Below are positions 42,811-43,494 of a stretch of 64,000 bases of DNA, piece after piece (the first letter of the stretch is position 1; each line of letters begins with the position of its first letter). The stretch lies in the NCBI RefSeq assembly GCF_003334255.1, contig NZ_QOWU01000011.1; one strand, 5' to 3'. Position numbers and translations under genes: made by a program. The notes below the pieces were generated by a model that was given only the letters and a program-made list of their open reading frames with translations, did not search any database and was not told the DNA's origin. The stretch comes from Escherichia coli (GTDB taxonomy: Bacteria; Pseudomonadota; Gammaproteobacteria; Enterobacterales; Enterobacteriaceae).

Positions 42811-42981
42811 CGGACTACCTCAAAATAAAGCTTTATATACGAATGATTGTTTCATACTCCAGGAAGACGGTAAACCACTCTCTGCAGGGCATTACACACT
42901 AATAACAATTGAATAACTCACAGTTATGTGCAGAGTTATAAACAGAGGAAGGGGTGGATAGCCGTTTTTATTCACCTTTTC

Positions 42982-43307
42982 TGTGGATAGAGTTGTGAAG
43001 AACTACGGAATTACTACGGGAAAACCCGGAGCATTCTGAATAAGCCCGATATAGACATTTTAAAATATTCATTATCAGTCAATGCATTACATGTAATTTT
43101 AGTAATGAAAAAGAGTAATTCGTGACCCAGGTCACACCTCTCATTTACGGGTTGGCGAAAGATCAACCAATGCCGTATTTATCCACAGAATGTGCCACTA
43201 AGTTAAGCACTGAACCACTAAAAACTGGAGTTTCGTCGCACGTCAAGGCTGTAAATGGAAACAGTAGTGGAGGTTTTTCACAGTTATCCCAGCTTTCTGT
43301 GGATAAC
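42982..43307. promoter_or_regulatory. DnaA-box cluster in the rppH-mutH intergenic region, consistent with DARS2
   Basis: Perfect TTATCCACA at 43179-43187 (+) and 43299-43307 (- orientation, tgtggataa); near-consensus cTATCCACA at 42982-42990 (- orientation). Confidence 0.6.
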
Positions 43308-43316
43308 ATGGTGTAA
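43170..43316 (+). CDS. Small ORF (48 codons) inside the DnaA-box region; possibly the annotated small protein YgdT
   Basis: ATG at 43170 (MPYLSTECATKLSTEPLK...), in frame within the 64-aa track ORF 43122..43316. The 48-aa length matches my memory of ygdT; no clear SD; coding status unproven. Confidence 0.3.
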   Translation: MPYLSTECATKLSTEPLKTGVSSHVKAVNGNSSGGFSQLSQLSVDNMV

Positions 43317-43494
43317 GATCCTGTTTATTTTCAGTGACCAGATTTGGAAAACCCGTTGCAGTGTTGCGCAACTCGATTACCGGCAACCTAAAAAGCAATA
43401 TAAATCAGAGAATTGAACAACGCATGTGGAAAAAGTTACACTGCGAATATTCGGCACATAATTGCTGTTTGTTTTTTAATCAAGGTATCATGAC

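Follow-up and report, generated by a model that had tools for sequence, protein, structure and literature searches.

The chromosome of Escherichia coli carries two DnaA-reactivating sequences, DARS1 and DARS2. Active ATP-DnaA is regenerated ahead of every replication round chiefly at DARS2, the correct recognition of which matters for annotation. The original definition of DARS2 is reportedly that of Fujimitsu 2009; the numbering of boxes I-III used here was taken from later papers. The two elements share their published biochemical outcome, the release of ADP from DnaA, and differ in their accessory parts. According to the literature, DARS1 has no requirement for IHF or Fis and possesses only a short flanking stimulatory region. 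DARS2, unlike DARS1, includes the IHF-binding sites IBS1-2, the Fis-binding sites FBS1-6 and DnaA boxes IV-VI; with IHF and Fis present, its reported activity is about 10 times that of DARS1.

The mechanism of DARS2 has been published for a sequence identical to the one studied here, and the biochemical steps that follow are taken from the literature (Miyoshi 2021, PMC8682772; Kasho 2014, PMC4245941; Kasho 2025, PMC11724364; PMC5742627). In the published model, ADP-DnaA would bind the three boxes of the core, and the DnaA molecules on boxes I and II would interact head-to-head. IHF bound at IBS1-2, the stable binding of which needs negative supercoiling, would bend the DNA sharply, and the bend would bring Fis at FBS2-3 into contact with the core-bound DnaA. 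ADP would then dissociate, and the resulting apo-DnaA would leave the core and rebind ATP; the level of ATP-DnaA would thereby rise before initiation at oriC. At a high level, ATP-DnaA is proposed to nucleate at box V and to spread over low-affinity boxes into FBS2-3, assisted by DiaA. The ATP-DnaA oligomer would displace Fis and switch DARS2 off, forming a negative feedback. IHF- and Fis-dependent release of ADP and altered initiation upon deletion or amplification of the element have likewise been published for the identical sequence (PMC4245941, PMC8682772, PMC11724364).

Location and identity of the element

The window, a stretch of 64 kb of E. coli DNA that was analysed as a whole, contains a gap of 684 bp at 42811-43494 that separates rppH (42280-42810, minus strand) from mutH (43495-44184, plus strand). 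The flanking coding sequences encode RppH and MutH, and both proteins are 100% identical to their counterparts in strains BW25113 and MG1655. The first-pass annotation of this gap had proposed DARS2 partly because this element maps next to mutH in K-12. The flanking genes and the position reported for DARS2, upstream of mutH (PMC11317965), bear this out. The alignment to MG1655 that it had recommended places the gap at 2968978-2969661 of NC_000913.3 with 100% identity, and the DARS2 primers match exactly. The 4 kb surrounding the gap are also identical to MG1655, and the gap is 100% identical in BW25113. Among complete E. coli genomes, 5425 of 5426 carry the gap sequence at an identity of at least 95%. 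Coordinates of NC_000913.3 are converted to those of the window by subtraction of 2,926,167.

The oligonucleotides listed by Kasho et al. 2014 (PMC4245941, Supplementary Table S1) were mapped onto the window. Each of the 25 tested DARS2 primers and oligonucleotides (25/25) has one exact match, all of them are in the expected order, and together they span 42945-43399. Primers MutH-4 (42945-42963) and MutH-2 (43381-43399), the pair that amplifies the 455-bp DARS2 fragment, enclose exactly 455 bp, and therefore define the boundaries of DARS2 in the window. The mapping of oligonucleotides, together with the identity to MG1655, excludes a location of DARS2 elsewhere in K-12. The minimal DARS2, present in the deltaRight construct pOA67, is enough to stimulate initiation from a plasmid (PMC4245941).

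We are thus close to certain that the gap contains DARS2, and no result speaks against this identity. The element is already known. Because DARS2 itself, its sub-sites and its mechanism were published for exactly the same sequence, the finding adds no discovery. The RefSeq records of the region contain no DARS2 feature, and the sole label on this stretch is the doubtful 48-codon ygdT. The features of the locus are collected in the table.

Features of the rppH-mutH spacer and of the DARS1 core. Positions are those of the window unless an accession is given.
Feature	Position	Strand	Sequence	Basis or remark
Full published DARS2 fragment, 455 bp	42945..43399			NC_000913.3 2969112-2969566
Minimal DARS2 (deltaRight construct, pOA67)	42945..43177			Right end from primer MutH-11 (43157-43177)
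DARS2 core	42968..43002		TTATTCACC-TTTTC-TGTGGATAG-AGT-TGTGAAGAA	Published site of ADP-DnaA assembly and ADP release
DnaA box I (core)	42968..42976	+	TTATTCACC	One mismatch to TTWTNCACA
DnaA box II (core)	42982..42990	-	CTATCCACA	Third box of the first-pass annotation
DnaA box III (core)	42994..43002	-	TTCTTCACA	Consensus scan
DnaA box IV	43035..43043	-	TTATTCAGA	Consensus scan; primers Ksh-30/Ksh-31 leave 43034-43043
IHF block IBS1-2	43061..43089		TAAAATATTCATT (43061-43073) and AGTCAATGCATTA (43077-43089)	
FBS1, non-essential Fis site	43113..43127		GAGTAATTCGTGACC	Perfect consensus; oligonucleotide FIS-1U, 43105-43135
Critical 21-mer, essential Fis sites FBS2-3	43158..43178		AAAGATCAACCAATGCCGTAT	Between MutH-24 (ends 43157) and MutH-25 (starts 43179)
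ygdT (b4610), annotated 48-aa ORF	43163..43309	-		Spans box V to box VI
FBS4-5 region, including box V	43164..43203			Coordinates of oligonucleotide F45U
DnaA box V, perfect	43179..43187	+	TTATCCACA	subDnaAboxV primers Ksh-32/Ksh-33 flank exactly 9 bp
Core-like triad around box VI	43284..43318		TTATCCCAG-CTTTC-TGTGGATAA-CAT-GGTGTAAGA	
DnaA box VI, perfect	43298..43306	-	TTATCCACA	subDnaAboxVI primers Ksh-34/Ksh-35 flank exactly 9 bp
FBS6, non-essential Fis site	43347..43377			Coordinates of oligonucleotide FIS-4U
Candidate sigma-70 promoter of mutH	43435..43462	+	GTTACA-16-CATAAT	Putative, outside DARS2
DARS1 core	NC_000913.3, about 813107-813141		TTATCCACT-ATTCC-TGTGGATAA-CCA-TGTGTATTA	bioD-uvrB spacer of MG1655

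Architecture of the core, the IHF and Fis sites and the outer boxes

The core is flanked by the deltaCore primers MutH-14, which ends at 42967, and MutH-15, which starts at 43003. The independent deletion arms of Frimodt-Moller et al. 2015 bracket the same 35-bp core (PMC4585315). Boxes I and II are placed head-to-head with a 5-bp spacer, and box III follows 3 bp further; the 'double DnaA box' gTTCTTCACAactCTATCCACAg given for DARS2 corresponds to boxes III and II (PMC11317965). The core of DARS1 has the same 9-5-9-3-9 geometry, with a plus-strand box, 5 bp, a minus-strand box, 3 bp and a second minus-strand box, and is identical to the DARS2 core in 24 of the 35 positions. The true DARS signature is formed by boxes I and II, which face each other across 5 bp, plus box III.

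The first-pass annotation had based its proposal on two perfect DnaA boxes and a near-consensus third one, and had considered closely spaced, oppositely oriented boxes as the DARS signature. The perfect box on the plus strand and the near-consensus box on the minus strand, which is box II, are found exactly where it had located them. The second perfect box has the opposite orientation, as claimed, and lies one base lower than the 43299-43307 given for it. Close spacing and opposite orientation hold for the core pair; they do not describe the two perfect boxes, because 110 bp separates them. Hence the DARS2 call stands and its rationale stands in part: the perfect boxes are boxes V and VI, located outside the core, and box II was the only member of the core triad that had been noticed, and it had been given a secondary place.

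The same annotation had recommended a scan for IHF and Fis sites, which succeeded for the former and largely failed for the latter. The IHF block contains two 13-mers in opposite orientations, 3 bp apart, each with one mismatch to WATCAANNNNTTR, and the IBS1-2 block on the translocation primers traIR-U1 and traIL-L1 maps onto the same two 13-mers. The published separation of IBS1 and IBS2 is also 3 bp (PMC4245941); the two sites are presumably numbered from left to right. Measured between centres, IBS1-2 lies 90 bp from the core and 93 bp from the Fis 21-mer, in agreement with the published statement that the IHF sites are 'about equidistant' from the core and FBS2-3 (PMC11724364).

At zero mismatches, the scan with the Fis consensus found only the non-essential FBS1 and missed the essential FBS2-3. 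With one mismatch allowed, one site is found in the 21-mer and two more within or overlapping the FBS4-5 oligonucleotide. Since a perfect consensus match exists only at FBS1, the assignment of FBS2-5 follows the published footprints; the essential sites need these footprints, and the Fis scan alone is uninformative. Oligonucleotide F23U, which carries FBS2-3, maps to 43146-43183, and the essential role of the 21-mer with FBS2-3 has been published (PMC4245941). The FBS4-5 region is where ATP-DnaA oligomerises and displaces Fis (PMC8682772).

Boxes IV-VI and the whole right half of DARS2 are dispensable for stimulating initiation from a plasmid (PMC4245941). Box V is the high-affinity nucleation site from which ATP-DnaA oligomers evict Fis in the negative feedback (PMC8682772). 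The first-pass annotation had named DnaA binding as decisive for its proposal, and published ChIP-seq peaks demonstrate that DnaA is bound here in vivo. The three DARS2 peaks, at 2969124, 2969306 and 2969501, have a relative coverage of 78, 199 and 213, respectively, comparable to the coverage of oriC and datA (PMC11317965). After conversion to the window they are located at 42957, 43139 and 43334, corresponding to the core, the box V/FBS cluster and box VI; the strongest of them, at 43334, is thus the one at box VI. The coordinates are stated to be those of NC_000913.2 (PMC11317965); the peaks appear to fit the elements only if read as version 3.

Conservation of DARS2 and its right half

In order to compare DARS elements across species, the triad pattern TTATNCAC-N6-TGTGGATA-N4-TGTG was scanned in one genome per species and gave at least 120 loci. 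Among the matches listed, these are mostly from γ- and β-proteobacteria. The enterobacterial loci were sorted by tblastn with RppH, MutH, PtsP, YgdQ, BioD and UvrB as queries and form two classes, a DARS2-type flanked by rppH and mutH and a DARS1-type flanked by bioD and uvrB. Among the matches listed, Vibrio, Shewanella and the Idiomarina relatives have the uvrB-linked type. We aligned the window with ten DARS2-type spacers of other Enterobacterales that have rppH and/or mutH as flanks, from two Citrobacter, three Enterobacter, Acerihabitans, two Yersinia, Photorhabdus and Providencia.

Across the ten other spacers, the core retains an identity of 0.92-1.0 to E. coli, with 0.92-0.93 for boxes I, II and III; the TTTTC spacer between boxes I and II is invariant. 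Boxes V and VI are invariant in all 11 aligned sequences. The Fis 21-mer has an identity of 0.69, the IBS region is kept mainly as an AT-rich TTCA...TTA pattern, and box IV (0.46), FBS1 and FBS6 are poorly conserved. The distance from box I to box V is 208-212 bp (211 bp in 8 of the 11 sequences), and from box V to box VI it is 118-119 bp in all aligned spacers. The sequence between the conserved elements is only about 40-55% identical. This near-fixed spacing despite the divergence of the intervening sequence is evidence for a geometrically strict nucleoprotein structure of the kind that the IHF-loop model demands.

The right half was dispensable in assays on multicopy plasmids and is commonly regarded as accessory, yet it is as conserved across Enterobacterales as the catalytic core. 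It contains the longest conserved block of the spacer, 43231-43350, with an identity of 0.72-0.90 per 20-bp bin. Within this block, box VI is the centre of a triad that has the 9-5-9-3-9 geometry of the core and is identical to it in 23 of 35 ungapped positions, a likeness about equal to that between DARS1 and DARS2. When the rest of the gap was shuffled 2000 times, 4 shuffles attained this score, and one unrelated match of 23/35 to the core exists elsewhere in the window. The identities of the triad elements across the spacers are 0.87-1.0. The gap also contains an exact 12-nt direct repeat at a spacing of 316 bp. Both the core and the triad are followed by a GGAAAACCC repeat, and GGAAAACCCG is repeated after the core at 43019 and after the triad at 43346.

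A further block, CGTCAAGGCTGTAAAT...CAGT at 43241-65, is nearly invariant and contains the motif CTGT-N8-ACAG; its CTGT and CAGT positions are the same in 11 of 11 aligned sequences. A LexA box was considered at 43247-43266 and would be a weak one. Its score of 13.5, given by a rough PWM built from known sites, lies at the low end of the training scores (12.8-27.1), and an equally scoring match occurs elsewhere in the window. The motif is attractive because DARS1 adjoins the SOS box of uvrB; our literature search found no paper linking LexA to DARS2.

In the DARS2 literature we found no function assigned to the right half or to the core-like triad. From the fixed 119-bp distance to box V and the invariant sequence, we infer that the right half, box VI included, may be part of the same nucleoprotein machine. 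We speculate, tentatively and as a possibility rather than an expectation, that the right half (about 43238-43335) has an undescribed function, either as a second site of DnaA docking or exchange or as a regulator of DARS2 whose effect would be seen only in single copy on the chromosome. What interest the locus still has lies only in this half, in its unexplained conservation and its core-like architecture. The sole possible gain is comparative, namely that the part most strongly bound by DnaA and most conserved lies in the plasmid-dispensable half.

Other readings of the box cluster and comparison with datA and oriC

The boxes, especially V and VI, could mainly be a DnaA operator for mutH, rppH or an unannotated transcript rather than a part of the reactivation element. 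DnaA is known to act as a transcription factor, and the uvrB regulatory region overlaps DARS1 (PMC11317965; references in PMC12371093). An operator would also suit a right half that is dispensable on a plasmid yet contains the longest conserved block of the spacer, as well as the candidate mutH promoter 129 bp downstream of box VI. This candidate is the sole promoter-like match in 42700-43600, a count not above the shuffle expectation, and the same holds for two terminator-like hairpins from the same scan. Box VI is too far upstream of it for occlusion, and no promoter-like match in 42700-43600 overlaps boxes V or VI or explains the conserved right half. A permissive Rfam scan of the same interval found no RNA family. 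Moreover, box V has a demonstrated role in the negative feedback of DARS2, and the core, IHF and Fis elements fully explain the left half. We thus regard an operator as unlikely and keep to a reactivation element.

Is the cluster instead a passive DnaA sink, or an inactivating site similar to datA? It has two invariant consensus boxes with a ChIP coverage as high as that of datA and oriC (PMC11317965), it combines DnaA boxes with an IHF site as datA does, and there is general support for titration of DnaA by chromosomal boxes (PMC12371093). However, published work on this sequence in vitro and in vivo shows ADP release, a higher level of ATP-DnaA and over-initiation with extra copies. A datA-like site is further contradicted by the location of datA itself, near yjeV and the glyVXY operon, and by the head-to-head I/II core, a DARS feature described as absent from oriC and datA. 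A sink or an inactivating site therefore seems rather improbable as the identity of the cluster. Titration by boxes V and VI could be an additional role of DARS2 that does not exclude the main one.

The conservation of the right half could also be that of a coding sequence, since ygdT is annotated there by RefSeq as a CDS for the small protein YgdT, in MG1655, BW25113 and 20 of 20 E. coli records among the matches listed. In E. coli and Citrobacter sp. FP75 the ORF is uninterrupted. In nine of the ten other spacers it is broken by stops, a length change or loss of the ATG. Internal stops occur in C. werkmanii, E. cloacae, Enterobacter Bisph1, Acerihabitans, Photorhabdus and Providencia. Acerihabitans and both Yersinia have a 1-nt length change, and Enterobacter BIGb0383, both Yersinia and Providencia have lost the ATG. 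Because the frame is broken in these spacers while the DNA motifs stay invariant, ygdT is, on comparative grounds, probably an annotation artefact rather than a real gene. Conserved positions cluster in motifs that resemble DnaA boxes, and halfway along the ORF the conservation drops to 0.39. The ORF takes its ATG from the CAT abutting box VI and ends inside the Fis 21-mer. A literature search on ygdT expression found no report of it, only unrelated YGDT polymerase motifs and lists of strain deletions. Conservation as a YgdT coding sequence is accordingly very unlikely.

The 64-kb window contains two perfect DnaA boxes, and both are in the gap; shuffles give an expectation of 0.41 for the window as a whole. 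When up to one mismatch to the relaxed consensus TTWTNCACA is allowed, 10 sites fall in the gap against 1.15 expected, and the densest 455-bp stretch for relaxed boxes in the whole window overlaps the DARS2 region. An origin by chance in an AT-rich spacer has a single point in its favour, the frequency of lone one-mismatch boxes (20 in the window, 12.9 expected), and is practically negligible given the Poisson probability of about 1e-5 for at least two perfect boxes within 684 bp, the P of about 4e-7 for the relaxed boxes, and the invariance of the boxes at fixed spacing in 11 of 11 sequences.

As a reactivation element, DARS2 may be compared with the two other DnaA-binding regions. Similar to DARS2, datA consists of clustered DnaA boxes in non-coding DNA together with an IHF site, the timed occupancy of which regulates the nucleotide state of DnaA. 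In contrast to DARS2, datA promotes hydrolysis of the DnaA-bound ATP after initiation. It is located near oriC at coordinate 4392740 (about 4.393 Mb), whereas DARS2 is at 2.969 Mb between rppH and mutH. It is also described without a head-to-head pair, and in the literature we found no Fis dependence described for it.

With oriC, DARS2 shares a high-affinity consensus box that nucleates the cooperative association of ATP-DnaA with flanking low-affinity boxes; the DARS2 counterpart is box V with the low-affinity boxes V-a to V-c. Both sites also involve IHF and DiaA. No unwinding of DNA or loading of helicase was found described in the literature for the assembly at DARS2. Unlike at oriC, the assembly of ATP-DnaA at DARS2 evicts Fis and switches the element off.

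Conservation of the right half of DARS2

Plasmid assays found the half of DARS2 around DnaA box VI, its right half, to be dispensable (PMC4245941). Yet no other highly conserved stretch of the rppH-mutH spacer, compared among 11 Enterobacterales genera (E. coli and ten others with aligned spacers), is as long as the block in this half, at 43231-43350. A core-like triad, which is a degenerate copy of the DARS2 core, lies here, and the distance between its block and box V is fixed at 118-119 bp in the 11 genera. A direct repeat follows both triads: GGAAAACCCGGAGCA (43019-43033) after the core and GGAAAACCCGTTGCA (43346-43360) after the core-like triad, the second copy overlapping the non-essential Fis site FBS6. 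The presence of this repeat behind both triads suggests that DARS2 may have originated by internal duplication.

The block CGTCAAGGCTGTAAAT...CAGT (43241-43266) is nearly invariant in the 11 genera and contains a palindrome, CTGT-N8-ACAG, similar to a LexA box. A rough PWM places it only at the low end of the range for known sites, and a random match elsewhere in the window (14801-14820) scores the same. In Acerihabitans, the sequence at the position of the E. coli palindrome is that of a DnaA box (CTGTGGATAG).

DARS2 contains two GATC (Dam) sites. The site at 43317-43320 adjoins the box VI module and is retained in all 11 genera; the site at 43161-43164 falls within the essential Fis 21-mer and is retained in nine of them. 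These sites may connect DARS2 with hemimethylation or SeqA.

DARS2 peaks from a DnaA ChIP-seq study (PMC11317965), whose Table 1 is labelled NC_000913.2, match the DARS2 elements (window positions 42957, 43139 and 43334) only if the coordinates are taken as NC_000913.3.

Annotation of the spacer and of RNA genes

The RefSeq annotation has no DARS2 feature at 43163-43309 and gives the ORF ygdT instead. Because the ygdT frame is disrupted in nine of the ten other genera, this ORF is probably not a gene. The interval that separates rppH from the left end of the published DARS2 fragment (42834-42944) has several conserved blocks, namely TGATTGTTTCACACT, CGGTAAACCACT and CTAATAACAATTGAATAACTCACAG, which presumably represent the promoter and leader of rppH. 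The RNA genes found elsewhere in the window are all expected for the corresponding region of the K-12 chromosome.

Features in and around DARS2 and RNA genes of the window
Feature	Position	Strand	Basis or remark
GcvB	16749-16954		Rfam gathering-threshold match
ES036 (CssrF)	19970-20012		Rfam gathering-threshold match
tRNA	21440-21513		Rfam gathering-threshold match
DnaA-like box TTATAAACA	42936-42944		conserved; directly outside the 455-bp DARS2 fragment
ygdT, 48-codon ORF	43163-43309	minus	RefSeq annotation; spans box VI to Fis 21-mer
Core-like triad	43284-43318		9-5-9-3-9 geometry, identical to core; 23/35 identity
OmrA/OmrB, tandem sRNAs	49935-50218		Rfam gathering-threshold match

DARS core triads in other bacteria

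The triad pattern of the DARS core occurs widely in γ- and β-proteobacteria, with at least 120 loci (L004-L123 of a one-genome-per-species scan); the matches listed include Pseudomonas, Xanthomonas, Halomonas and Nitrosomonas. Legionella nagasakiensis and L. rowbothamii have many copies of a perfect DARS-like triad, TTATCCACA-AAATC-TGTGGATAA-nnn-TGTG (Legionella loci L057, L059, L061 at 2219 and 4870, and L063; also L014-L017). Similar flanks of about 100 bp or more are common to five copies in L. nagasakiensis, and both copies in L061 are located in spacers just beyond the 3' ends of unrelated genes. Judged by sequence, the Legionella triads look like a dispersed repeat element bearing DnaA boxes.

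Among the matches listed, most non-enteric triad loci lack all six E. coli flanking genes that were tested, and linkage of the triad to uvrB, as in DARS1, is seen in Vibrio, Shewanella and relatives of Idiomarina.
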